From the NCBI GenBank assembly GCA_037445995.1, contig JBBIJK010000006.1, positions 3,629-67,628 of the forward strand: 64,000 nt of DNA, given 5' to 3'. Source of the stretch: Actinomycetota bacterium (GTDB taxonomy: Bacteria > Actinomycetota > Coriobacteriia > Anaerosomatales > D1FN1-002). A model generated the notes under the pieces. The model was not told the origin of the DNA, searched no databases, and worked only from the letters and a program-made list of their open reading frames with translations. Below are positions 43,475-53,716 of the stretch, in pieces (within the stretch, counting starts at the first letter, position 1; the number at the start of each line of letters is the position of its first letter). A program made the position numbers and the translations under genes.

Positions 43475-44410
43475 CTAGCCCGCCGGCGCCTCCGGCTTCC
43501 CGTCCTTGAACAGCTCGGCGATGCCGCCGATGCTGCCCATGATCCCCGCCACCTCCATGGGCAGGAACACCTTGTTGGCCGCGCCGTCGGCGATCGCGGT
43601 CAGGGTCTCCAGATAGCGGACAGCGATGAGGTCGTTGGTGGGGTCGCCCTCGTGGATGGCCCCGAAGACGGACTTGATCGCCAGAGCCTCGCCCTCGGCC
43701 ACGGTCAGCTTTTGGAACTTCTCCGCCTCAGCGACCTCCTTGATGGCCGCGGCCTTGCCCTCCGCCTCCAGGATCGCGGATTGCTTGAACCCTTCGGCGC
43801 GTGTGATGGCCGCCTGCTTGTCGCCGTCGGCTTCCAGGATCTTGGCGCGACGGTCGCGCTCGGCCTTCATCTGGCGGTGCATCGCGTCGGTCACGTCGAC
43901 GGGGGGCTCGATGCGCTGAAGCTCGACGCGCACTATGCGCACGCCCCACTTGTCGGTGGCGTCGTCGAGGATCTGCCGCAGCGCGGCGTTGATCTTCTCG
44001 CGTGAGGTCAGCGACTCGTCGAGCTGCATCTCGCCGATGACGTTTCGCAGGTTGGTCTGCGCGAGCTTCGTGGCGGCCAGGTAGAAGTTCGCGACGTTGT
44101 ACATGAGCTTCACGGGGTCCGTGGCCTCGTAGTACACGACGGCGTCCACGGTCACGACGACGTTGTCCTTGGTGATGACCTCCTGCGGAGGCACGTCCAC
44201 GACGTTCTCCCGCATGTCGACGCGGGTCATCCGGTCGACCACCGGGATGATGATGTGGAGCCCCGAATCTACTGTCTTCTGGTACTTGCCCAGCCGCTCG
44301 GTCAGCCCCTTCTGGTACGGCCGCACGATCCGTATGCCAGCCACAGCCCAGAAGAACAGGACGAAAAGAAGCAGTACCCCTAGGAAGACCACCGTCGGGA
44401 ACATCGCCAC
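43475..44410 (-). CDS. SPFH/band 7 (stomatin-like) protein
   Basis: An N-terminal TM helix is followed by an SPFH domain ([18 protein letters not shown]...). The C-terminal coiled coil is Ala/Glu-rich. Confidence 0.9.
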
Positions 44411-44413
44411 CCC

Positions 44414-44884
44414 CTACTCGTCGCCGGGCGCCACGGTCTGGGCGCCCTCGTCTGCGGGGCGCACGACCAGGTGCGTCCCGTCTATCCTGACGACCACCAC
44501 CCGCGCGCCCTCCGGCACGGTTCCGAAGCCCGGCGCGTCGGCGCGCCACTCCTCGCGTTCGATGCGCACGCGACCGACGTTGGAGTCGGTATCGAGGCGC
44601 TCGATCACGACGCCGGTCTTCCCGATTAGGCGGTCGACCCCGACCTTCTCGGGGGGTTCGTGCGTGAAGCGCTCGGCGAGCTTCCGCATGGCCAGCAGTG
44701 TGGCCGCCGAGACGACGAGGAACGCCCCCCACTGCCACCCCACGCTGACTTCCAGGAGCGCCAGGACGGCCGCCACCGCTCCACCGACGCCGAACGGCAG
44801 CAGGAAGAATCCGGCGGTGAAGATCTCGGCGACCACCAAGACCGCAGCCAGCACGGCCCAGAACCAGAACCACACGTCGCTCAT
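44414..44884 (-). CDS. NfeD-family membrane protein
   Basis: 156 aa with two or three TM helices and a C-terminal OB-like domain (GRVRIEREEWRA). It lies 3 nt upstream of the SPFH gene, which is the classic nfeD-stomatin pairing. Confidence 0.85.
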   Translation of the reverse strand: MSDVWFWFWAVLAAVLVVAEIFTAGFFLLPFGVGGAVAAVLALLEVSVGWQWGAFLVVSAATLLAMRKLAERFTHEPPEKVGVDRLIGKTGVVIERLDTDSNVGRVRIEREEWRADAPGFGTVPEGARVVVVRIDGTHLVVRPADEGAQTVAPGDE

Positions 44885-44983: not shown

Positions 44984-46582
44984 GTGGATACCGTCATCGT
45001 CACGTTCGAGCCCGATGGCGCGCTCGCCGGGGTCGCGCACGGAACGACCGTGCTCGAGGCGGCTCGCGCCGCCGGTGTGCGGGTCGCGGCGCCATGCGGC
45101 GGAGCCGGCTTGTGCGCCGGATGCGCCGTCCTCGTCCAAGGGCAGCTTACGCCTCCCACGCGAGACGAGCGCAGGCTGCTGAGCGCCGACCAGCTCGCGC
45201 GCGGGATGCGCCTGGCGTGCCGCGCGAGGGTGACCGGTCCTGTCGTGGTGCGGCCCTTGGGCGCGAGCGGGGCGGTCGAGACTCTCTCCGCGGCGCCTGT
45301 CACGGTGGCGGGGTACGTCGTCGACCCTCCTGGCGCGCGGGGGCTGGCGTGCACGGGGAGGGCACTCGGCGTCGCCATCGACCTCGGCACCACGACGATC
45401 GAGGCCTCCATCGTCGATCTGCGAAACGGGGACTCGGTGACCGCCGCGTCCGTGGCCAACCCGCAGGCGGCCTGGGGCGCTGACGTGATGTCTCGCGTGT
45501 CGCACGCGATGGCCGGAGGATCCGTTGCGCTGCGTGAAGCCGTAGCGGACGCTCTGAGCGCACTGCTCGCTTCGATGCTCGAAGAGGCGGGCGCACAGGC
45601 GCACGACATCTGCGAGGCCGCTCTGGCCGGAAACACAGTGATGACGCACCTTCTCCTCGGGCAGGATGTCTCGCCCCTGGCTTCGGCGCCCTACCAGGGG
45701 GCGCATCTCGAAGCCACGGTGCGGGACCTCGCGTCCGTGGGCATCCGCGGGGCAGGTGACGCGGACCTCTACGTCCTGCCTGCCGCATCGGCCTTTCTCG
45801 GCGGCGACGTGGTGGCGGGGCTTGTCGCGACGCGGTTCGAAGAGGGCGGGGGCGTCGCGCTCTTCATCGACCTCGGGACCAACGGCGAGATCGTGCTGCG
45901 GACACCGGAAGGCCTGCTGGCCACTTCGGCGGCGGCTGGCCCGGCGTTCGAGGGCGGAGCCGCCTCGTCAGGCATGCGGGCGGAGCCCGGCGCGATCTGG
46001 AGGGTTGGCTGGGACGGCGAGGAGCTGAGGCTCGACACGATCGGCGACGTGGCCCCGCGCGGGTTCTGCGGCAGCGGCCTTCTGGCGCTCGTGGCGTCGC
46101 TGCTGGACGCTGGCGTGATCGCTCCGGACGGCCGGATGTCGCCCCACGGGGCGCTGGGCGCCCGAGTCGAAGAGCGCGAGGGGCAGCTCGTCTTCCGGGT
46201 CTCGGAGGGAGTGGCGCTCACTCAGGGCGATGTCCGCGCTTTCCAGCTCGCGCTCGCCGCGGTCAGGGCAGGGGTGGAGAGGCTGTTGGCCGTGGGCGGC
46301 ATCGACGAGGATGCGGTAGGAGAGGTCGTGCTCGCGGGTGCGCTCGGGGCCGCCCTGGACGAGGCATCGCTTCAGCGCGTCGGGATGCTGCCGAGCGATT
46401 GGCGGCCAAGGGTGCGGGTGGTCGGGAACGCGGCGCACGCGGGCACGGCCGCGGCCCTGGTCAGCTCGGCCGCCAGAGCCAAAGCCGCCTCGGTCGCGAG
46501 AGTGGTGAGGACTCACGACCTTGCCATGGACCCCGGCTTCAGGGATGTGTTCATCGGTTCGATGACCTTCCCGGCGGGGTAA
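44984..46582 (+). CDS. 2Fe-2S ferredoxin / ASKHA (DUF4445, RACo-like) fusion protein
   Basis: GTG start. The plant-type ferredoxin Cys pattern is CGGAGLCAGC...LAC. The ASKHA phosphate-1 motif is AIDLGTTTI, and DLGTNGE follows. Confidence 0.8.
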   Translation: MDTVIVTFEPDGALAGVAHGTTVLEAARAAGVRVAAPCGGAGLCAGCAVLVQGQLTPPTRDERRLLSADQLARGMRLACRARVTGPVVVRPLGASGAVETLSAAPVTVAGYVVDPPGARGLACTGRALGVAIDLGTTTIEASIVDLRNGDSVTAASVANPQAAWGADVMSRVSHAMAGGSVALREAVADALSALLASMLEEAGAQAHDICEAALAGNTVMTHLLLGQDVSPLASAPYQGAHLEATVRDLASVGIRGAGDADLYVLPAASAFLGGDVVAGLVATRFEEGGGVALFIDLGTNGEIVLRTPEGLLATSAAAGPAFEGGAASSGMRAEPGAIWRVGWDGEELRLDTIGDVAPRGFCGSGLLALVASLLDAGVIAPDGRMSPHGALGARVEEREGQLVFRVSEGVALTQGDVRAFQLALAAVRAGVERLLAVGGIDEDAVGEVVLAGALGAALDEASLQRVGMLPSDWRPRVRVVGNAAHAGTAAALVSSAARAKAASVARVVRTHDLAMDPGFRDVFIGSMTFPAG

Positions 46583-46591
46583 GTAATGCCT

Positions 46592-46606
46592 TGGCACGAG
46601 GGTTGC
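46592..46606 (+). promoter_or_regulatory. sigma-54-type -24/-12 promoter match (TGGCACG-N4-TTGC)
   Basis: TGGCACGAGGGTTGC is an exact match to TGGCACG-N4-TTGC. It lies in the 83-bp gap upstream of the copper cluster, about 60 nt before the ATG at 46666. Confidence 0.3.
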
Positions 46607-46665
46607 ACCGCGTGACCAGGCGCCAGGTGACATCGGGGGTCGGATTGCTCGGGTACGCGACAAGG

Positions 46666-46989
46666 ATGCGGGATCATCTCACGCCATGGCTGGTCGTGGC
46701 GATTCTCGCCATCTCGGTGATGCCGCTGCTCCTCGCGGGAGCGTGCGACGTCGCTTGCGCCTTGGGTGCGATGCCAGCCGGCGCGTGCAGGCACGAGGGC
46801 GTGTCGCACTCGCATTCTCACAGCTCCGGCGAGCTGACAGCCATGCTCCCGCTCATCCAGCAGTTTGTCGCGGCCGTGACGGTCTTGACGCTCTTGATGG
46901 CTCTCACGGTGGCGTTCCCGCGGCCCTCTCGCGCGGTGGCTCTGGCCGCCCCGGTTGAGGCGCGCGCCGGGACCCGAATGCTCAACTGA
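46666..46989 (+). CDS. small Cys/His-rich membrane protein
   Basis: 107 aa with two hydrophobic helices flanking ACDVACALGAMPAGACRHEGVSHSHSHS. Confidence 0.45.
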   Translation: MRDHLTPWLVVAILAISVMPLLLAGACDVACALGAMPAGACRHEGVSHSHSHSSGELTAMLPLIQQFVAAVTVLTLLMALTVAFPRPSRAVALAAPVEARAGTRMLN

Positions 46990-47031
46990 CACCCCCTTCT
47001 CTTCTGGCCGCGGTCCGATAGCGGCGGCGGC

Positions 47032-47056
47032 AGCCCGGCCCTCGGGGGCCCGGGCT
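47032..47056 (+). other. GC-rich intra-cluster hairpin
   Basis: AGCCCGG...CCGGGCT outer stem with a CCC/GGG inner stem. No U-tract follows. Confidence 0.35.
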
Positions 47057-47105
47057 CAGACTCTGCGGACACCTGTCATTTCTACGTCCGCGCTGAAGAG
47101 AAGGG

Positions 47106-48416
47106 TTGGCTCTGACTGTGGAACTGTTCATCCCCGCGCTCATCGTGGGACTCGTGACGAGCGTTCATTGCGTCGCCATGTGCGGAGGGCTCGTCCTGAC
47201 CTACGCGGTCAAGGGCGACTCCAGCGGACCATGGTATCGGCGGATGCTCCCGCACGTCGCCTACCAAGGCGCGAAGATCACCAGCTACGTGACCGTCGGT
47301 CTACTGCTGGGCAGCATCGGGGCTCTGCTGGGCCTCGACGAGACGCTCGGCGGGTTTCGCGGCTACTTCACCGTGTTCGCATCGACGCTCATGATCCTGA
47401 TCGGTCTGCAGATGACCGGCTGGTTCCCCGTGCTCAACAGGCTGGCGTTTCGCCCGCCCAAGTGGCTTGCCGGCACGCTGTCGAACGCCCGCCGTAAGGC
47501 GCGCGAGGATGCATCCGCGGGCCGGGTCACCCTGACCACGCCGGTGACGTTCGGTTTGCTCACCGGCCTGATGCCCTGCGCGCCGCTGATGGCTCAGCAG
47601 GCCGCAGCCGCTGCGAGCGGCTCGCCGGTCTCCGGCGCCGTGATCATGCTCGGCTTCGGTCTCGGCACAGCGCCTCTCATGCTGGGCTTCGGGGCGGTGT
47701 CGGGCATGCTGTCGCAGCGCGTCAAGGCCGCCATGAACGTGGTGGCCGCGGTCGTGATCATCGGGTTCGGCCTCGTGCTGCTCAACCGCGGGCTCATGCT
47801 GGTCGGCTCTCCGGTCACAGCTCAGTCGATCGCGCAGAGCGTCATCGGCGCTCCGGAGGTTGTGGAGCCCTCCGCGTACACGACAGCGGCTGACGGGGTG
47901 GTCGAGATCCCGCTCGCGATCGAGAACGTCCGCTTCTCGCCGCAGGCCGTCAGCATCCCGGCCGACAGGCCCGTCCGCCTGGTCGTGGACCGCCGGGAGG
48001 ACAACGCGTGTTCCGACCAGCTGGCGGTCCCGCAGCTGGGCGTCCTGAAGGACCTGGCTCCGTTCGCCACCACGGTCGTGGAGCTGCCTCCTGCGAAGGC
48101 CGGTTCGTACACCCTGACATGCGGTATGGGGATGATGTCGGGCTCGCTTGTGGTCGGCGGGACCGCCGGCGCCAGCGGTCCGGGTCTCCCCGCCGCCGTG
48201 CTGGGCCTGGCGGCCGTGGCTGGAGCGGGATGGTGGATGACACGTGGGCGCAAGCGCGCTCGCATGGCCGCGGCCAGCCAGGGCCCGACCGTTTCCGTCG
48301 CAGCCGAGGTGCCCTCAGGCCTGTTCGGCTTGTCCCCCACCGAGATGATCCTTGCGATGGCGGCGTTCGCCGCGGCGGTGATCGCCGGGCTCGCTGCTGG
48401 CGGGATGTTCAACTGA
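47106..48416 (+). CDS. DsbD_2/TauE-like membrane protein fused to a cupredoxin-like domain
   Basis: The N-terminal TM domain has the HCVAMCGG motif and about 6 TM helices. The cupredoxin-like domain runs ...NACSDQLAV...SYTLTCGMGMMSGSLVV. Two further TM helices follow. The start is 47106 (TTG) or 47118 (GTG). Confidence 0.75.
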   Translation: MALTVELFIPALIVGLVTSVHCVAMCGGLVLTYAVKGDSSGPWYRRMLPHVAYQGAKITSYVTVGLLLGSIGALLGLDETLGGFRGYFTVFASTLMILIGLQMTGWFPVLNRLAFRPPKWLAGTLSNARRKAREDASAGRVTLTTPVTFGLLTGLMPCAPLMAQQAAAAASGSPVSGAVIMLGFGLGTAPLMLGFGAVSGMLSQRVKAAMNVVAAVVIIGFGLVLLNRGLMLVGSPVTAQSIAQSVIGAPEVVEPSAYTTAADGVVEIPLAIENVRFSPQAVSIPADRPVRLVVDRREDNACSDQLAVPQLGVLKDLAPFATTVVELPPAKAGSYTLTCGMGMMSGSLVVGGTAGASGPGLPAAVLGLAAVAGAGWWMTRGRKRARMAAASQGPTVSVAAEVPSGLFGLSPTEMILAMAAFAAAVIAGLAAGGMFN

Positions 48417-48443
48417 CACACCGATACGAGAGGAAACACTGAC

Positions 48444-48977
48444 ATGAGCAATCACACCATGGACGGCCAGAAGCGGGTGCGCTACCTGGCAGTGGTGGCG
48501 TTGGCCGGCGTGGCCTTCTTCGGAGCGTATGCGTACGCTCTGGCTGCCAGGGGCCCCGTCCCGTCGCAAGTCGGCGCGGACCCGTACGGGGCCATCTTCC
48601 CGGCCGCGGCGGGTCCTGCCGCGGGCGGAGGTGGATGCAGCAGCTGCGGCAGCTGTAGTGGTGGCAACCCCACCGGCGAGCCGATCGTAGGGACCGCCGT
48701 GGTAGAGGGTGGCGTCCAGAGGCTGACGGTCGACGTGACGAAGGGCTACTACGACCCCGACACGATCGTCCTTGTCGCCGGCGTCCCCGCCGAGATCACC
48801 TTCACCGAGTCATCCGGCTGCACCGCGCAGGTGATGAGCAAGAGCCTCGGGTTCTTCGAGGACCTCACCACCGGCCCCAAGACCGTCAAGCTTCCGGCGC
48901 TGGAGCCGGGCGAGTACGGGTACAGCTGCGGCATGGAGATGCTGTTTGGCAAGTTCGTCGTCGAGGCGGTGCAGTGA
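48444..48977 (+). CDS. membrane-anchored cupredoxin-like protein with CSSCGSC linker
   Basis: RBS GAGAGGAAA. An N-terminal TM helix is followed by a Gly/Cys-rich linker GGGGCSSCGSCSGG. The domain runs ...SSGCTAQVMS...YGYSCGMEMLFGKFVV. Confidence 0.7.
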   Translation: MSNHTMDGQKRVRYLAVVALAGVAFFGAYAYALAARGPVPSQVGADPYGAIFPAAAGPAAGGGGCSSCGSCSGGNPTGEPIVGTAVVEGGVQRLTVDVTKGYYDPDTIVLVAGVPAEITFTESSGCTAQVMSKSLGFFEDLTTGPKTVKLPALEPGEYGYSCGMEMLFGKFVVEAVQ

Positions 48978-48978
48978 G

Positions 48979-49566
48979 ATGAGCACCGCTGTCAGGGAGA
49001 TACTCCGTGTCAGCCTCGCAGGCGAGAGGTGCAGGTCGGCAGGCGAGCTCCTGATGCTCAACCTGGGGCGCATCGCTGGTGTGGATGCGGTCACCTTGGA
49101 CGACAAGGGGTCGTTGCTGGTGCTGTCCCTTCCGGGCGCCGAGGTCGCCGACCAGGTCGTGACCCGCGCGGTGGCGGCCGGGTTCGAGCCGACCGCCGTG
49201 AGGACGCTTCGCTACCCTGCCCCCGCGCATGGCCGACCGCTGACCTGCGCGGAAGCCGAGCGGCTCGGGGTGGTGGCTTCCGCCAAGGAGCCGGTCCGGG
49301 CGCGCACCGAGGCGGTGCAGCGGGTGTCGGTGGAGGTCACCGATGGATACGACCCGGACACCATCCTCGTCGAGGCAGGGATTCCGGTGGAGATCGGGTT
49401 CTCCGAAGGGCACGGCTGCCTGTCCGAGGTCGTCTTTGACGGCCTGGGTGTGAGGGCCGATCTCCGGCAAGGCGGGGCGGTCGTGAGGCTGCCCGCGCTG
49501 GACGCCGGTCACTACACGTTCAGATGCGGCATGGACATGGTCCATGGCGTCTTGATCGCTGAATAG
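48979..49566 (+). CDS. degenerate HMA-like domain fused to a cupredoxin-like domain
   Basis: The N-terminal ferredoxin-like fold has GERCRSA in place of GMTCxxC. The C-terminal domain runs ...GHGCLSEVVF...YTFRCGMDMVHGVLI. Its start lies 1 nt after the upstream stop. Confidence 0.65.
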   Translation: MSTAVREILRVSLAGERCRSAGELLMLNLGRIAGVDAVTLDDKGSLLVLSLPGAEVADQVVTRAVAAGFEPTAVRTLRYPAPAHGRPLTCAEAERLGVVASAKEPVRARTEAVQRVSVEVTDGYDPDTILVEAGIPVEIGFSEGHGCLSEVVFDGLGVRADLRQGGAVVRLPALDAGHYTFRCGMDMVHGVLIAE

Positions 49567-49575
49567 GAGAATGAC

Positions 49576-52335
49576 GTGAACACCACCACCAAGAAGGTGT
49601 ACCGCGTCGGGATCGAGGGGATGACGTGCCGATCCTGCGAGCAGTTGCTCACAGAGCACGTCCTCCAGGTGCCGGGGGTCGAGTCCGCGTCGGCGGACGC
49701 GCACACCGGCGAGCTCATCCTGTTCGCGGACAGTTCGACGCTTTCGCTGGACAGGCTCACCGCAGCCGTGGTCGCCGCCGGCTTCACTCCAGCCGGGGAG
49801 GGCATGCCCGAGGTCGAGAACCTCGGGGCGACAGCACGGATCGCCGAATCAGAGGCTGCCGCCCATCACGTGCACCGGATGGACGAGCCGGCGCTCGAGG
49901 CTGACGCTCCTGCCCTCATCGCCCCGGCGGTGCCACAAGGCGCCGCGTCCGCGGAGGCGTCGTTCGCTGTGACAGGGATGACGTGCGCAAGTTGTGTCGC
50001 GGTGATCGAGAAGACGCTGTCCAAGACGCCTGGCGTCACCTCGGCCAGGGTCAACCTCGCCACCGAGAAGCTCGCCGCCACGTTCGATCCTGCCGTCACG
50101 GACGCGGCCGCGATCGCGGCCTCCGTCAAGAAGGCCGGGTATGAGGCGCTTCCGCTCAGCGAGACCAGCGTGGCCCTCGCCGCTCCTGCTTCCGCGGTCC
50201 TCCAGCCGACCACGACTCCGGCGCCGGCCGCGCAGGCGGCCCCGGCCCCGAAGTCGGCCACGGACGTCCAGCGTGAGGCGCAGGAGCGGCACACCCGCCA
50301 TCAGACGCGGCTGTTCCTGCTCGCGCTCGTGCTGGCGGTGCCCGCGTTCCTGTTCTCGATGATCCCTCCGTTCATGGAGGTCATCCCGAAGACTGTCGCC
50401 AGCTGGCTCGCTGGCTCCGTCGGCGGCGCGTGGGACCCCTGGATGGTCAACAAGTACCTCGGCTTCATCCTCAGCACCCCGGTCCAGTTCGTCGCGGGCG
50501 CTCAGTTCTACCGCGGGTTCTGGCACGCGCTTAGGCGCCGCACCGGGAACATGGACACTCTGATCGCGATAGGCACGTCCGCCGCCTACATCTACAGCGT
50601 GGCGGCGACGTTCGTCCCGCAGCTCGCGGGTGAGCCGATCTTCTACGAGGTGGCGGCGTTGCTGATCACCTTCGTCATTCTGGGCAAGCTGCTCGAGGCC
50701 CACGCCAAGGGCAGGACGTCTGACGCGATCAAGAAGCTGATGGGGCTGGCCGCGAAGACCGCCCGAGTGGTCCGCGACGGCGTCGAGGTGGACGTGCCGG
50801 TCGAGACCGTGATGGTCGGCGACGTCGTGGTCGTGCGCCCGGGCGAGAAGGTCCCAGTGGACGGCCATGTGATCGACGGCCGATCCAGCGTCGACGAGTC
50901 CATGCTCACCGGCGAGTCGATCCCGGTGGAGAAGAACGTAGGCGACACCGTCATTGGTGCCACCATCAACAAGCTGGGGTCTTTCAGGTTCCGGGCCACC
51001 AAGGTCGGGGCGGACACCGCCCTGGCTCAGATCATCAAGCTGGTCGAGGACGCCCAAGGCTCCAAGGCGCCGGTCCAGAGGTTCGCTGATCGGATCAGTG
51101 CGGTGTTCGTGCCGGCTGTTCTGGCGGTTGCGGTCATGACGTTTCTTGTGTGGTTGTTCGCCGTACCGAACTTCGTGGACGCGGCCTTCTACGCGGACAT
51201 GACCCCGTTCGTGAAGGCGCTACTCGCCGCCACGGCGGTCGTGGTCATCGCGTGCCCGTGCGCGCTCGGGCTCGCCACGCCGACCGCGATAATGGTCGGT
51301 ACCGGGAAGGGCGCCGAGAACGGCATCCTGATCAAGGGCGGCGACTCGCTGGAGACGGCGTACAAGATCAAGGCGATCGTCTTCGACAAGACCGGGACGC
51401 TTACGTATGGCAAGCCCGTGGTCACGGAGTACGAGTCGGCCGACGGCTCTGATCCGGCGGGGTTCTTCAGGCTGGCCGCGTCGATCGAGCGCTCAAGTGA
51501 GCATCCGCTCGCCGAGGCGATCGTCGCGCGCGCAGGAGAGCTCGGGATGAGCCTTCCGCAGGTCAGCGGCTTTGCCGCGGTCCCCGGCCACGGCGTCGAG
51601 GGATCCGTCGAGTCGCGCAGGGTGGTGCTTGGCAACCGCAAGCTGATGGCCAGGGAGTCGATCGACGTCTCCGGACACGCGGCCCGGATAGAGACCCTTG
51701 AGAGAGAGGGCAAGACCGTGATGCTGGCGGCGGTCGACGGGCGCTTCGCGGGCCTGATCGCCGTGGCGGACACCCTTAAGGACAACTCGCGCGAGGCGGT
51801 GGAGCGGCTCACGAAGCTGGGCGTGCAGGTCTTCATGATCACCGGCGACAACCGCAGGACGGCAGAGGCCATCGCCGCTCAGGCCGGGATCGACCCCGAC
51901 CACGTGTTGGCTGAGGTCCTGCCCGAGCACAAGGCGGAAGAGGTCGGCAAGCTCCAGGCGCGCGGGTTCGTGACCGCGATGGTGGGCGACGGTATCAACG
52001 ACACACCGGCGCTCGCACAGGCGGACGTCGGGATCGCCATGGGTGCTGGCACCGACGTCGCCATGGAGACCGGCGGGATCGTTTTGATGAAGAACGACCT
52101 GCGCGACGTCGTGACGGCGATCGAACTCTCGAAGCGCACGATGCGCAAGATCCACCAGAACTTCTTCTGGGCGCTTGGCTACAACACGCTCGGGATACCC
52201 GTGGCGGCTCTGGGTCTCCTGCGTCCGGAGCTGGCCGGCGCGGCGATGGCGCTCTCTTCGGTCAGCGTTGTGACCAGCTCGCTGCTGCTCAGGAGATTCA
52301 AGCCCAGTCTCGCGAAGTCCACGCCACGGGCGTGA
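49576..52335 (+). CDS. copA: copper-translocating P1B-type ATPase
   Basis: 919 aa with two HMA domains ([16 protein letters not shown]). Other motifs are TGESIPV, the CPC motif [18 protein letters not shown] and [10 protein letters not shown]. Confidence 0.95.
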
Positions 52336-52355
52336 CGCCGAACGGAGGGATAGTG

Positions 52356-52826
52356 ATGAGGAAGGTGTTGAACATCGCGGCCGCGGTCTTCGCGCTGGCT
52401 GCGCTTGCCGGTGTGACACTCTTCTCCTTCGCCAACGCAGGCGAAGAGGAGGACATGATGATCGGAGTGATAGTGGCTGAGCGTAACGCGGCGCTCGAGG
52501 TCGAGGACCAGACCGCTGAGACGGGCTACCTGACGGTCGCGCGCGTCCTCGCGCCGTCCGATTCCTGGATAGCGGTCCACATGGACGAGGATGGCATGCC
52601 CGGCCCTCGCGTGGGCTTGGCCAGGGTCGAGAAGGGCGTCTCCACCGACGTCCGCGTGGAGTTGGACGATGAGGCGGAGCTCCTTCCGACGCTCATCGTG
52701 GCTTTGCACGCCGACCGCGGGGTGGCGAACAAGATCGAGTTCGACCCCAAGAGGTTCGAGCAAAGCCCCGACAAGCCCTATTTCGTGGACGGCGAGGAGC
52801 TGGCGAAGGTGGTGGCTGTCCGCTAG
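52356..52826 (+). CDS. secreted beta-sandwich protein (DUF7282-like)
   Basis: ATG start 7 nt after GGAGGG and 21 nt after the copA stop. It has a signal/anchor helix. The domain ...GYLTVARVLAPSDSWIAVHMDEDG...LIVALHADRG... resembles, from memory, a domain of haloarchaeal secreted proteins. Confidence 0.5.
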   Translation: MRKVLNIAAAVFALAALAGVTLFSFANAGEEEDMMIGVIVAERNAALEVEDQTAETGYLTVARVLAPSDSWIAVHMDEDGMPGPRVGLARVEKGVSTDVRVELDDEAELLPTLIVALHADRGVANKIEFDPKRFEQSPDKPYFVDGEELAKVVAVR

Positions 52827-52862
52827 GCCGTGCGCCCGCGGGGCTCCCGCGAGTTTCCTGAT

Positions 52863-52893
52863 GGCCCCGGGGCGTTCGCCCCGGGGCCTTTTC
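52863..52893 (+). terminator. rho-independent terminator of the copper cluster
   Basis: GGCCCCGGGGC-GTTC-GCCCCGGGGCC followed by TTTT. Confidence 0.7.
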
Positions 52894-52912
52894 GTATGGT
52901 CCGAGACAACCA

Positions 52913-52977
52913 GATTAGAGAGGGCGAAGTCATAGGATTAGAGAGGACTAACAACGGGGATGTAGTCCTTAGAGATT
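52913..52977 (+). promoter_or_regulatory. direct-repeat array GATTAGAGAGG x2 plus TTAGAGA, with embedded 7-bp inverted repeat
   Basis: Exact 11-mers lie at 52913-52923 and 52936-52946, a 23-bp period. A third TTAGAGA core lies at 52969-52975. AGGACTA (52944-52950) and TAGTCCT (52963-52969) form an inverted repeat. The patch is AT-rich and upstream of the gene at 53009. Confidence 0.4.
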
Positions 52978-53008
52978 GTCACAACGGAAGTGCGAGGAGG
53001 CGAGAACG

Positions 53009-53716
53009 ATGAGGGCGATGATGGGGCAAGTGGCCCGCACTCGAAGGTCCTCCGGTACAGGCGTCATCGCACTGTCGGTGTTCGTTGCGCTAGCCGTGGC
53101 GTTCACCTACGCGACGGTGGCCTACGCATCGGTGGTAGTGCCTCTCAAGAGTGCGCATGTTGGCGCCAGCAGCGAGACCTTCAACAACGAGACAGATGAC
53201 GGCGGCTTGTCCGCCGCGGTCGTCTGGCACTTCGTACTCAACGGTTTGGATCACGGGACCGGCCAGGGTGTCATCACGGTGAATTTCGCCGGGGCTGGCT
53301 CGGTGACCGCCAGCGGACGGGTGGTGGGTAACGGCAGCACCCAGCACTTCTACGTGGGGACCTCCGGTCACGACGTGATCGTTGGTGCCTCCGCTGCGGT
53401 GGATTCAGCGGGGTACGGTCAGCTCGTTCTCAGTCACGTTTCCTGGGACGATCTGGTGGACCCCGAGGACCCGCAGGACCCTGAGGACCCGCAGGACCCC
53501 GAGGACCCGCAGGACCCCGAGGACCCGCAGGACCCTGAGGACCCGCAGGACCCTGAGGACCCGCAGGACCCTGAGGAGCCTTTCCTTCCCTTCACCGAGG
53601 AAGACCCCGAGTACCTTCCCTTCACCGGTGTGGACAACGGAGCGTTCGCGGCAGGAGTGGCGCTGCTGCTGACCAGTGGCGGCATCATGCGGCGGTGGGC
53701 GCGACGAGTGGTCTGA
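53009..53716 (+). CDS. LPXTG-type (LPFTG) cell-wall-anchored surface protein with (DPEDPQ)6 stalk
   Basis: ATG start after GAGGAGG, then a signal peptide ending AYA. An about 120-aa N-terminal domain is followed by an acidic Pro-rich repeat. The C-terminal sorting signal is LPFTG, then a hydrophobic stretch, then RRWARR. Confidence 0.75.
53459..53575 (+). repeat. in-frame 18-bp tandem repeat (GACCCNGAGGACCCGCAG), about 6.5 copies
   Basis: Counted codon by codon. Six full DPEDPQ units span 53459-53566, followed by a partial DPE. Variation is only at synonymous third positions. Confidence 0.95.

Follow-up and report, generated by a model that had tools for sequence, protein, structure and literature searches.

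Predicted outward-facing CupA-type Cu(I) domains in a copA operon of an uncultured anaerobic actinobacterium

A six-gene operon of an uncultured anaerobic actinobacterium, located on the + strand at 46612-52826 of the 64-kb window (the whole stretch of DNA analysed), encodes three products (g2, g3 and g4) that each carry a paralogous domain of about 85 amino acids with a Cys...CxMxM signature. Sequence and modelled structure identify it as the binuclear Cu(I) domain known from Streptococcus pneumoniae CupA and from the CopA metal-binding domain (MBD). What appears to be new is its deployment: two of the three copies are predicted to lie outside the membrane, one of them fused to an uncharacterised DsbD-like core, which suggests that copper efflux in single-membrane bacteria has an outer half not described so far. 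With slightly better than even confidence, we favour a reading in which the operon serves Cu(I)/Ag(I) efflux around CopA, with CupA domains on both membrane faces, the DsbD_2 core acting as a Cu(I) conduit, and the translation of g1 and g2 being coupled.

A preliminary description of this DNA reported one common domain in three consecutive products, with the motifs NACSDQL, SGCTAQV and HGCLSEV at the first Cys and TLTCGMGMM, YSCGMEML and TFRCGMDMV at the second. All of these motifs were found in the translations, as were HCVAMCGG, CSSCGSC and GERCRSA, and 20 columns of the alignment were invariant, among them those of both Cys and both Met residues. The HMM assignment proposed there returned Cupredoxin_1 (Pfam) in g2, g3 and g4 (E = 1.4e-14, 8e-13 and 8e-12, respectively) and DsbD_2 in g2. 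Moreover, a profile built from the three domains matched CupA (2MRY/4F2E; E = 2e-20) and the CopA MBD (4F2F; E = 6e-14), the top Foldseek match of the modelled g2 domain was CupA 4F2E (TMt: 0.84; rmsd: 1.5 Å), and the window domains were 35-39% identical to CupA. The preliminary description knew of no functional account of the arrangement; the domain itself is already functionally described (4F2E, 4F2F, 2MRY; PMC7558416, PMC5646241). Reviews confine CupA to a few streptococci (PMC7558416), whereas the CupA-domain family here comprised 4498 cluster representatives.

The four Cu ligands (C74, C111, M113 and M115) were near-invariant over about 150 orthologous domains: each was retained in 59 or 60 of the 60 fusion (DsbD_2-borne) domains, in 55 or 56 of the 56 anchored domains that were aligned, in 7 to 9 of the 9 domains of the g4 type and in all 21 domains from Bacillota. 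The preliminary description had staked its copper assignment on these Cys/Met positions being kept in orthologues and on co-conservation with copA. Among the 80 related loci surveyed, the latter was also observed: in 42 of the 43 Coriobacteriia loci, copA followed the DsbD_2-CupA fusion in the same orientation and at a distance of no more than 3.5 kb. Together, the two results support a copper cluster with three probable paralogous Cu(I) sites. A second CupA domain was present in 54/56 loci, and a DUF7282 gene (g6) in 29/37 related loci; the fusion gene was preceded by a positional equivalent of g1 in at least 35 of the 56 Coriobacteriia loci. Only 9 of the 58 related loci contained the g4 carrier, and hence the full triad, which makes the triad a minority variant rather than the conserved unit it had been taken for. 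The conserved cassette is the small Cys-rich protein, DsbD_2-CupA, anchored CupA, copA and DUF7282.

The six same-strand genes, their spacing (intergenic gaps of 116, 27, 1 and 9 nt) and a closing terminator were as previously described, the last being an intrinsic-terminator-like hairpin at 52863-52888 (+) with 11 G-C pairs, a 4-nt loop and a T-rich tail. The start formerly given for the first gene (46592) was out of frame by one base; the options are GTG at 46612 (the NCBI call in a near-identical contig), ATG at 46666 and TTG at 46591. This gene, g1 (46612-46989), encodes a small Cys/His-rich membrane protein with two predicted transmembrane (TM) segments and a loop, CDVACALGAMPAGACRHEGVSHSHSHSS, predicted to face outward. 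It had no Pfam or NCBIfam match, and its equivalents were Cys-rich with the C-terminal end G-x-R-[LIFMV]-x-[VILN]. A phmmer search with a set of reference sequences, which has limited sensitivity, detected neither a regulator of the CsoR, CopY, CueR, SmtB or OmpR type nor a free CopZ in the 64-kb window, in agreement with the reported lack of CsoR/CopY/MerR-type regulators and CopZ. Likewise, no copper-responsive operator was found within the window. In homologous loci elsewhere, CsoR or two-component regulators adjoin.

The g1-g2 spacer RNA (46994-47105, +) is predicted to be structured, with a minimum free energy of -63.4 kcal/mol (z = -4.0) that was equalled by 0 of 200 shuffles. The 5' arm of its stem, CCCUUCUCUUC (46994-47004), starts directly after the g1 stop codon and pairs with GAAGAGAAGGG (47095-47105), the Shine-Dalgarno region of g2. 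The same design was present in 33 of 35 related loci (median arm-arm duplex: -23.5 kcal/mol; median z: -3.3), the arms co-varied across them, and the spacer RNA had no match in Rfam. Because the stem begins right after the g1 stop codon and masks the g2 ribosome-binding site, the translation of g2 is most likely coupled to that of g1.

The g2 gene (47106 or 47118 to 48416, +; GTG at 47118 is the likely start) encodes a six-TM DsbD_2 core (Pfam; E = 1e-44), a CupA-type domain (C...CGMGM) and two extra C-terminal TM helices, in this order, which bears out the DsbD_2 permease with HCVAMCGG proposed for the first carrier. TM1 contains HCVAMCGG and a broken TM4 contains MPC; the consensus HCxxMCG and MPC are invariant. 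Specifically, H17, C18, M21, C22, P153 and C154 were invariant in the aligned DsbD_2 cores and lie mid-membrane in the AF2 model (pLDDT: 82.2), in which TM4 is broken at MPC. About 900 homologues share the g2 architecture, some labelled 'UreH domain-containing' by NCBI, and the fusion was present in at least 465 species genomes, with Scatolibacter rhodanostii and Clostridium sp. E02 as candidate cultured carriers. Of 21 non-actinobacterial loci, 18 had a cytoplasmic Cu-type HMA domain joined to the core, the Bacillota form having the order HMA(MTCxxC), one extra TM segment, DsbD_2 and CupA. The combination of HMA and DsbD_2 (COG2836) is a predicted member of the CsoR meta-regulon in gut Firmicutes (PMC4938975).

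The g3 product (48444-48977, +) starts with a single-pass anchor in N-in orientation, followed by a CSSCGSC linker and a predicted external CupA-type domain; the anchor and linker are those described for the second carrier. The g4 product (48979-49566, +) carries a CupA domain 49% identical to that of g3. Its N-terminal region resembled CopA's own HMA1 (31% identity over 72 residues; pairwise E = 3e-10), and the second HMA Cys was absent in 9 of 9 orthologues (GERCRSA); both results fit the suggested HMA-like domain with one lost Cys, but Pfam detected no HMA domain in g4. Because neither a TM segment nor a signal sequence was found, g4 is predicted to be soluble and cytoplasmic. copA (49576-52335, +) encodes a P1B-1 Cu(I)/Ag(I) ATPase (TIGR01511, TIGR01525) with two intact HMA domains (MTCRSC and MTCASC), a P-type ATPase core (Pfam) and the motifs CPC, YN, MxxSS and DKTGT; its best equivalog-level match was copper-exporting CopA. 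The last gene, g6 (52356-52826, +), encodes a membrane-anchored DUF7282 beta-sandwich (PF23951; E = 9e-17) in which W71, H75, D77, H118 and D120 are family invariants (17 homologues aligned, some with a lipobox). Its AF2 model (pLDDT: 84.6) had no solved structural relative at E < 0.01.

Topology was assigned from hydropathy, charge bias and fusion logic, and four independent sequence arguments predict that the CupA domains of g2 and g3 lie outside the membrane. These are the K/R-rich loops 1-2, 3-4 and 5-6 of 77 aligned DsbD_2 cores, the domain order of the Bacillota form, the RGRKRAR loop after TM7 of g2, and the joining of g3 to the C-terminus of g2 in at least seven loci, where the two CupA domains are not separated by a TM segment. 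This placement is further supported by the anchor flanks of 58 g3 orthologues (N flank more positive in 46, C flank in 5) and by lipobox forms among close relatives. In pneumococcal-type CupA, the positive charge followed the TM segment in 72 of 72 proteins, and the predicted outward placement of g2 and g3 is the reverse of this. The extracytoplasmic position of two of the three domains, which the preliminary description missed, is thus a predicted departure from what is known, whereas the copper hand-over along or across the membrane suggested there is consistent with CupA domains predicted on both faces.

Under the favoured reading, g4 would most likely dock on CopA through its HMA-like module and donate or buffer Cu(I), and CopA would export Cu(I), the established function of its family. 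Because g4 is absent from most related loci, this cytoplasmic donor step is not general. Exported Cu(I) would be received by ligand exchange at the g2 and g3 CupA domains, the Cys-rich linkers, the g1 Cys/His loop and the DUF7282 protein, with the RBS-masking stem tying the supply of g2 to g1 translation. These outer acceptors would probably also prevent re-entry of Cu(I), a role played elsewhere by CusF/CopL-type proteins. In the least secure step, the DsbD_2 core would itself conduct Cu(I), parallel to CopA, along a path lined by thiolates and thioethers that links the cytoplasm with the outer CupA domain of the same protein. A metal conduit is suggested by the six invariant mid-membrane residues, by the Cu-type HMA domains fused to the core, and by the LysE-superfamily relatives, which are mostly metal-ion exporters (PMC4608589). 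Conversely, the characterised relatives of the core, DsbD and CcdA, move electrons rather than metals, TM4 keeps P-C-x-P, and a further Cu(I) route seems superfluous next to an ATP-driven pump.

It is possible, though in our view less likely, that within an otherwise identical system the core is a thiol-disulfide (electron) conduit like DsbD, CcdA and ScsB. Electrons from cytoplasmic thioredoxin would then keep the outer CupA Cys pair, the Cys-rich linkers and g1 reduced, and could also reduce Cu(II) to Cu(I) at the CupA site outside. The Pfam family is itself DsbD_2, many homologues also match PF02683 (DsbD), one TM1 Cys together with the P-C-x-P Cys in a broken TM4 reproduces the DsbD/CcdA design, and the only solved relative found for the TM core was CcdA (5VKV; E = 0.029). 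Salmonella ScsB, a member of the DsbD family, offers a precedent, as it maintains CueP's Cys ligands in the reduced state and thereby aids copper tolerance. In addition, an FtrD-like Cys4 protein (PF10080) adjoins the fusion in Bacillota loci, and CupA reduces Cu(II) in vitro via C74 and C111, the source re-reducing them being stated as unknown (PMC5646241). However, the invariant His, Met and second TM1 Cys are metal ligands that thiol exchange would not need, and the fused HMA domains would have no role. Moreover, none of the recurrent neighbours in related loci was a thioredoxin-fold partner, and the carriers are mostly strict anaerobes, in which outer thiols need little protection.

Copper supply seems unlikely, whether CopA acted as a CcoI/CopA2-like exporter with the outer CupA domains as cuproenzyme chaperones or DsbD_2-CupA imported copper. 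Membrane-tethered outer chaperones (Sco, PCuAC) do typify cuproenzyme assembly, the Cupredoxin_1 relatives FtrB and EfeO work in uptake, and UreH, from which the NCBI name of DsbD_2 derives, is a nickel-enzyme accessory. Nevertheless, the ATPase layout is CopA1-like (two or three HMA domains) with copper-exporting CopA as the best equivalog, no cuproenzyme gene recurred in the 80 loci, regulators, where present, are of the CsoR or two-component kinds typical of resistance, and the LysE-superfamily relatives are mainly exporters (PMC4608589). Still less credible is a system for another thiophilic metal (Hg, Cd, Zn or Au) or a set of cupredoxin-like electron-transfer proteins unrelated to metal trafficking. 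The HMA-TM-Cys architecture is similar to the MerP/MerT relay, Cys-rich sites accept many soft metals, and PF13473 includes redox cupredoxins such as nitrosocyanin; yet the ATPase bears the Cu(I)/Ag(I) signature (CPC, YN, MxxSS) and matches TIGR01511, merA and merR were absent from the loci, and the ligands are exactly those of the CupA Cu(I) cluster rather than type-1 His2-Cys-Met.

Among known systems, S. pneumoniae CupA shares the fold, the four Cu(I) ligands (Cys, Cys-x-Met-x-Met), a membrane tether and a gene adjoining copA. However, its anchor is N-out with a cytoplasmic domain, whereas the anchored and DsbD_2-borne copies here are predicted to face outward and the one copy predicted in the cytoplasm is joined to an HMA-like module. 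Furthermore, the pneumococcal system has a CopA with a cupredoxin-like MBD and CopY, whereas here CopA has classical HMA domains and no CopY was found. In the mercury relay MerP-MerT-NmerA, an outer metal-binding domain, TM-helix Cys residues and a cytoplasmic HMA domain act in series by thiol ligand exchange. This serial arrangement is similar, but the TM part is non-homologous, the outer domain has an HMA rather than a cupredoxin fold, and the direction here is probably outward with Cu(I) as the metal. CusF (E. coli), CopL/YdhK (S. aureus and B. subtilis) and CopC are Met/Cys-rich outer proteins that are encoded with an exporter and bind exported Cu(I), the role proposed here for the outer acceptors; they share neither fold nor family with the CupA domain, and none is fused to a DsbD-like core. 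To our knowledge, no member of the LysE superfamily carries Cu(I), and the Cys3-His-Met site is confined to the g2-type DsbD_2 subgroup. The metal exporters RcnA/NicO, MntP and CadD, together with UreH-like proteins, belong to the same six-TM 3+3 superfamily as the core (PMC4608589). DsbD, CcdA and ScsB share with g2 the six-TM 3+3 core with both termini outside (PMC4608589), the TM1 Cys, the P-C-x-P Cys in a broken TM4 and a link to copper tolerance. Here, TM1 reads H-C-x-x-M-C-G with additional His, Met and Cys residues, a Cu(I)-binding cupredoxin takes the place of the thioredoxin fold as external partner, many g2 relatives bear the cytoplasmic HMA domain, and the similarity to the solved CcdA is marginal. 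The iron systems FtrABCD and EfeUOB share the Pfam cupredoxin family (FtrB and an EfeO domain) and, through FtrD, a resemblance to the neighbour of the Bacillota fusions, but their ligand sets differ, and the locus here is associated with copA instead of an FTR1 permease or P19.

The copper gene set consists of six plus-strand genes at 46.6-52.9 kb of the window (window G+C, 69%), delimited from the ORFs in the window and from the annotation of an NCBI contig with 99% identity (GCA_964592805.1, locus L081). These are g1 (46612-46989, start uncertain), encoding a small Cys/His-rich membrane protein without a Pfam match; the fusion gene g2 (47106 or 47118 to 48416), matching Pfam DsbD_2 (1e-44) and Cupredoxin_1 (1.4e-14); g3 (48444-48977), an anchored protein, and g4 (48979-49566), an HMA/CupA hybrid, both matching Cupredoxin_1; copA (49576-52335), with two HMA domains and a P-type ATPase core; and g6 (52356-52826), a DUF7282 protein. 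Intergenic gaps of 116, 27, 1 and 9 nt were found, and a terminator-like hairpin with 11 G-C pairs and a T-rich tail lies on the same strand at 52863-52888. The ORFs, Pfam matches, gaps and terminal hairpin thus confirmed the six-gene, same-strand copper cluster with three paralogous domains of the preliminary description, and every Cys/Met motif quoted there was found in the translations. The reported absence of a CsoR/CopY regulator also held: none was found in the window in a search of limited sensitivity with CsoR, CopY, CueR, SmtB and OmpR sequences as queries. Among related loci, CsoR was present in 4 and OmpR-type two-component systems in 19. NCBIfam gave no assignment for g1, g2, g3, g4 or g6, Rfam gave no match in 46000-53500, and a sigma-70 scan found no promoter. 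The idea that g2 and g3 are one frameshifted gene was rejected, since g2 has two extra transmembrane (TM) helices of its own and g3 its own anchor.

The copA product carries the complete P1B-1 motif set, namely CPC in the sixth helix (TM4), YN in the helix after it, MxxSS in the final one and the phosphorylation site DKTGT. Its N-terminal HMA domains retain MxCxxC as read in the translation, including MTCASC, and it scored 618 bits against TIGR01511 (cut-off, 397). Export of Cu(I) is the established function of this family.

When aligned, the domains of g2, g3 and g4 have 20 columns without variation, among them both Cys and both Met residues; they matched PF13473 at E-values from 1e-14 to 8e-12. 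A profile built from the three matched the CupA protein of Streptococcus pneumoniae (2MRY/4F2E) at E 2e-20, placing the first Cys on CupA Cys74 and the C-G-M-x-M motif on Cys111-Gly-Met113-x-Met115. Cys74, Cys111, Met113 and Met115 are the ligands of the bis-thiolate high-affinity S1 site and the Met-rich S2 site, which together hold a binuclear Cu(I) cluster (PMC5646241; PMC7558416). All four ligands (C...CxMxM) are present in each window domain. Moreover, the AlphaFold model of g2 (pLDDT 82.2) superposed on 4F2E with a TM-score of 0.84 and an rmsd of 1.5 A over 90 columns (Foldseek). Pairwise identity to CupA was 35-39%, compared with 49% between the g3 and g4 domains and 29-34% between the g2 domain and those two. 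Therefore, the three are CupA-type binuclear Cu(I) domains, each predicted from its residues to bind two Cu(I) ions. The earlier remark that no functional description is known was wrong for the domain itself, because it is the CupA domain; the expectation that its Cys/Met positions are conserved in orthologues was borne out. The four ligands were retained in 59-60/60 domains of the fusion, in 55-56/56 aligned domains of the anchored type and in 7-9/9 of the g4 type, as well as in 21/21 Bacillota domains, where the motif reads CWMGM. They are essentially invariant over about 150 orthologous domains.

Short Cys clusters flank the outer CupA domains, including CSSCGSC in the window (48630-48660), CACC in the linkers of fused forms (L033/L045/L052/L054) and tails reading GGGGCCG(F) at the C terminus of the Bacillota and Acidobacteriota proteins (L075:8027-8659, L079:6623-8449). 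These clusters are probably extra Cu(I) capture sites.

About 900 scored homologues carry the fusion of DsbD_2 and Cupredoxin_1, the majority from uncultured Coriobacteriia or Anaerosomatales and currently labeled 'sulfite exporter TauE/SafE' or 'UreH domain-containing'. When one genome per species was scanned, relatives were confirmed in at least 465 of the 600 candidate stretches examined. For neighbourhood analysis, 80 loci were kept, and their stop-to-stop ORFs were searched with the domains of the window. In Coriobacteriia-type loci, copA lay downstream on the same strand within 3.5 kb in 42/43, in agreement with the proposed co-conservation; this adjacency recalls the pneumococcal operon copY-cupA-copA, although no CopY homologue was found in the window. 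These loci also contained a second CupA domain (54/56), DUF7282 (29/37), a small Cys-rich protein gene 5' of the fusion (at least 35/56) and a small HMA gene (11/43), and the g4 type was limited to 9 loci. Among 21 loci of Bacillota, Treponema and Acidobacteriota, 18 had an HMA domain at the N terminus of the fusion, and 14 contained copA.

The CupA-type profile matched 4498 proteins among 1.84 billion cluster representatives at E <= 1e-3 and 1181 at <= 1e-10. According to a 2020 review, CupA is confined to a few streptococci (PMC7558416). Two proteins of 744-1017 aa, matched through an N-terminal domain (among proteins P0243, P0244 and P0252), are probably CopA with cupredoxin-type metal-binding domains (MBDs), as in pneumococcus. 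A lipoprotein-like protein of 1166 aa was also matched; it has nine cupredoxin-like repeats without CxMxM.

Several features bear on which side of the membrane the CupA domains lie. Across 77 aligned DsbD_2 cores, the K/R-rich loops were TM1-2, TM3-4 and TM5-6, which puts the N terminus outside together with the C-terminal CupA domain, across the membrane from these loops. The Bacillota forms consist of an HMA domain (MTCxxC), one extra TM helix, DsbD_2 and CupA; with the HMA domain cytoplasmic, the single extra helix forces an N-out/C-out core. In g2 of the window, two further helices, TM7 and TM8, come after the CupA domain with the loop TRGRKRAR between them, and this loop fits the positive-inside rule only if the domain is outside. 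Additionally, at least seven loci encode g2 and g3 as one protein (DsbD_2-CupA-linker-CupA) whose CACC-containing linker has no hydrophobic segment between the CupA domains, so both lie on the same face. The anchor of g3 itself has more K/R on its N flank in 46/58 orthologues and on its C flank in 5, and some N-terminal tails contain 9-16 Lys/Arg. The pneumococcal protein, whose N-terminus reads MLNSIVTIICIALIAFILFWFFKKPEKSGQK, has the reverse bias: in 72/72 full-length relatives with a TM segment the charge follows the helix (N-flank bias, 0/72), indicating an N-out protein with a cytoplasmic domain, in agreement with the literature. Lipobox-bearing CupA-like proteins were also among the closest cluster representatives. 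Taken together, the CupA domains of g2 and g3 are predicted to lie outside the membrane. Hence, whereas pneumococcal CupA combines an N-terminal anchor with a cytoplasmic domain, the g3 anchor has the opposite charge bias, the g2 domain follows TM6 of an N-out/C-out core, and g4 has no anchor at all. The pumps differ as well: pneumococcal CopA has a cupredoxin-like N-terminal MBD, whereas that of the window carries a pair of HMA domains of the ferredoxin-like type and lacks PF13473.

The g4 protein has neither a TM segment nor a signal sequence and is predicted to be cytoplasmic. It had been described as HMA-like with its second Cys lost. Homology to CopA supports this, as the N-terminal 72 residues were 31% identical to HMA1 (E 3e-10), and the metal motif, CxxA in the window, reads C[RQ]S[AVTIS] in 9/9 orthologues, i.e. 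with one Cys. The module does not, however, have an intact CxxC, and Pfam HMA stayed below threshold.

The g1 products are a fast-evolving set of small proteins encoded at the same position 5' of the fusion gene, and g1 matched no known family, Pfam and NCBIfam included. They share an N-terminal TM segment, a Cys-rich outer segment (Cys/His-rich in the window) and the C-terminal end G-x-R-[LIFMV]-x-[VILN], which is GTRMLN in the window. A longer form of this motif, P-P-x-D-P-[LR]-G-V-R-L-x-[IV], was also seen; examples of the g1 type are L043:6487-6930, L028:3526-3924 and L001:1026-1562. The protein encoded by g6 is a beta-sandwich, either membrane-anchored or a lipoprotein, in which W71, H75, D77, H118 and D120 are invariant. 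Its model (pLDDT 84.6) had no solved structural relative below E 0.01; the placement of His75, Asp77, His118 and Asp120 at the ends of two strands suggests a metal site. DUF7282 often occurs 3' of copA as 2-4 tandem repeats or as several genes.

The 116-nt spacer between g1 and g2 is predicted to fold at -63.4 kcal/mol (z = -4.0; 0/200 shuffles as stable). Its closing stem pairs 46994-47004 with 47095-47105 on the plus strand; the 5' arm begins 4 nt past the g1 stop, and the 3' arm is the purine-rich ribosome-binding region of g2. The same design was found in 33/35 related loci (spacers among L001-L058), where the 5' arm starts 0-4 nt past the small-gene stop (e.g. ACUCCUCGUG) and 0-8 nt separate the end of the 3' arm, CACGAGGAGU, from the start of the fusion gene. 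RNAalifold predicted no pairs on a MAFFT alignment of 19 spacers, because the 5' arm had been placed in two registers, and was replaced by a comparison of duplex energies with shuffles in each locus and by counts of anchored pairs. Across the 35 loci, the arm duplex had a median energy of -23.5 kcal/mol and a median z of -3.3 against shuffled arms, and in 16/35 no shuffled pair matched the real duplex. Moreover, the stem flanks co-vary, with A-U 13, U-A 3, G-U 2 and G-C 1 at one position and C-G 9, U-A 3, U-G 2 and A-U 1 at another, and pairing reached 0.74 in the true register compared with 0.38-0.66 in shifted ones. The inner hairpins are variable, and no Rfam family matched the stem. Probably, the stem masks the Shine-Dalgarno sequence of g2 until it is freed by ribosomes terminating on the small gene, so that translation of g2 is coupled to that of g1, which argues that both products work together.

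The DsbD_2 core of g2 may conduct metal or electrons. Among 58-77 sequences from several phyla (432-aa numbering), the invariant residues were S15, H17, C18, M21, C22 and G23 in TM1, G150, P153, C154, P156 and L157 in TM4, and F-G-L-G-T-x-P-L-M in TM5; in the g2 model, the TM1 motif sits halfway along helix 4-30, and TM4 has a break at 150-154. The Pfam match, the model helices, the charge profile and the Bacillota forms with HMA and extra TM helix all indicate that g2 shares the six-TM, 3+3 core of DsbD/CcdA with both termini outside. DsbD/CcdA proteins have one essential Cys in each of TM1 and TM4, in P-C-x-x-P-like motifs; TM4 of g2 has M-P-C-x-P-L, and TM1 has H-C-x-x-M-C-G, with two Cys and no Pro. 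On one of two readings, the residues added in TM1 (His, Met and a second Cys) are ligands for a soft metal. Most other families of the LysE superfamily, to which the DsbD family is assigned, are metal-ion exporters (PMC4608589), and HMA-bearing forms of the core were predicted in the CsoR copper regulon of gut Firmicutes (PMC4938975). A Cu(I) conduit is favoured because HMA domains are fused on the cytoplasmic side, because His and Met are available as ligands and because the hosts are anaerobic.

Conduction of electrons to the outer CupA domain is a strong rival to the Cu(I) conduit. The presence of a single Cys in each repeat and of a P-C-x-P motif is reminiscent of CcdA and DsbD, and such a core would answer the question, raised explicitly in the literature, of how the CupA cysteines regain electrons once they have reduced Cu(II) (PMC5646241). 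DsbD/CcdA proteins pass electrons from thioredoxin to a thiol-oxidoreductase on the outer side; no thioredoxin-fold gene was recurrent in the 80 loci. Solved CcdA (5VKV) aligned with the whole-fusion sequence profile only marginally (E 0.029) and out of register, so this alignment does not equate the Cys residues with the catalytic ones. Returning to Cu(I) conduction, the DsbD_2-CupA protein may be a new class of Cu(I) transporter in the DsbD/LysE superfamily, in which a mid-membrane Cys3-His-Met site hands Cu(I) by ligand exchange to the covalently joined outer CupA domain, and so takes part, with CopA and the CupA/HMA hybrid of the cytoplasm, in a transmembrane relay from CupA to CupA; we advance this tentatively, at somewhat below an even chance. 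If the core instead carries electrons, it would be the missing reductant of CupA-type sites. Transporter or reductant alike, it would fill the place of a copper-efflux partner on the outer face of single-membrane bacteria.

Building on the established identity of the Cu(I) domains, their conserved ligands, the synteny with copA and the pump function of the CopA family, the following scheme can be proposed. The g4 protein probably docks on CopA via its HMA-like module and donates or buffers Cu(I). CopA exports Cu(I), which the outer CupA domains, the Cys-rich linkers, g1 and the DUF7282 protein would take over by ligand exchange. Meanwhile, the DsbD_2 core might pass Cu(I), or alternatively electrons, to its own outer CupA domain.

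Reviews present CupA as a singular, streptococcus-restricted, cytoplasm-facing chaperone (PMC7558416, PMC9470648). Contrary to this picture, the CupA-type Cu(I) site is widespread in anaerobic Actinomycetota and Bacillota, and in the present lineage it is fused to a DsbD-like core, nearly always encoded with copA and predicted to be mostly extracellular. The preliminary interpretation was accordingly supported as to the copper cluster, the conserved ligands and the copA synteny, but not as to novelty, as the domain was already described. The literature search returned no paper joining CupA, cupredoxin and DsbD, or TauE, cupredoxin and CopA; outward CupA display, the DsbD_2 fusion with a Cys3-His-Met site, the HMA/CupA hybrid and the coupled small gene were found nowhere described in the searchable literature. 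The system bears on two questions, namely which acceptor takes Cu(I) on the monoderm outer face after release from CopA, and how the CupA cysteines are re-reduced or, alternatively, whether a thiol-lined secondary Cu(I) transporter exists. Cultured carriers and simple domain constructs are available for approaching both. In addition, hundreds of genes named 'sulfite exporter TauE/SafE family protein' could receive a new label.

Other genes were observed around the cassette. In 11 loci (L027, L030, L032, L035, L036, L040, L042, L044, L046, L055 and L057; mostly at about 5.2-6.5 kb), the cassette is directly preceded on the same strand by a gene for methionine sulfoxide reductase B (SelR, E 2.5e-51), which may be relevant to repair of Met-rich Cu sites or be mere synteny. 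In the Bacillota loci (L060-L080), the HMA-DsbD_2-CupA gene is followed by genes for an FtrD-like Cys4 membrane protein (PF10080, E 7e-27) and an unassigned lipoprotein (examples: L080:8103-8657, L068:4796-5500 and L080:11633-13795); an OmpR-type two-component system is also found there, and L069 and L075 have CsoR between the fusion and copA. A gene for a RACo-like corrinoid reductive activase (Fer2 and RACo domains) occupies 44984-46582 of the window on the same strand, 30-83 nt 5' of g1; it was rejected as a system member, since other loci do not conserve it beside the cassette. The NfeD and Band_7 genes on the opposite strand (43475-44884, -) are likewise not conserved there. Just past the terminator, 52976-53716 encodes a secreted protein without a Pfam match; it contains nine repeats of the PEDPQD type, and its LPFTG sortase motif precedes a TM segment and a basic tail. 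This product is a cell-wall-anchored surface protein, indicating a monoderm host.
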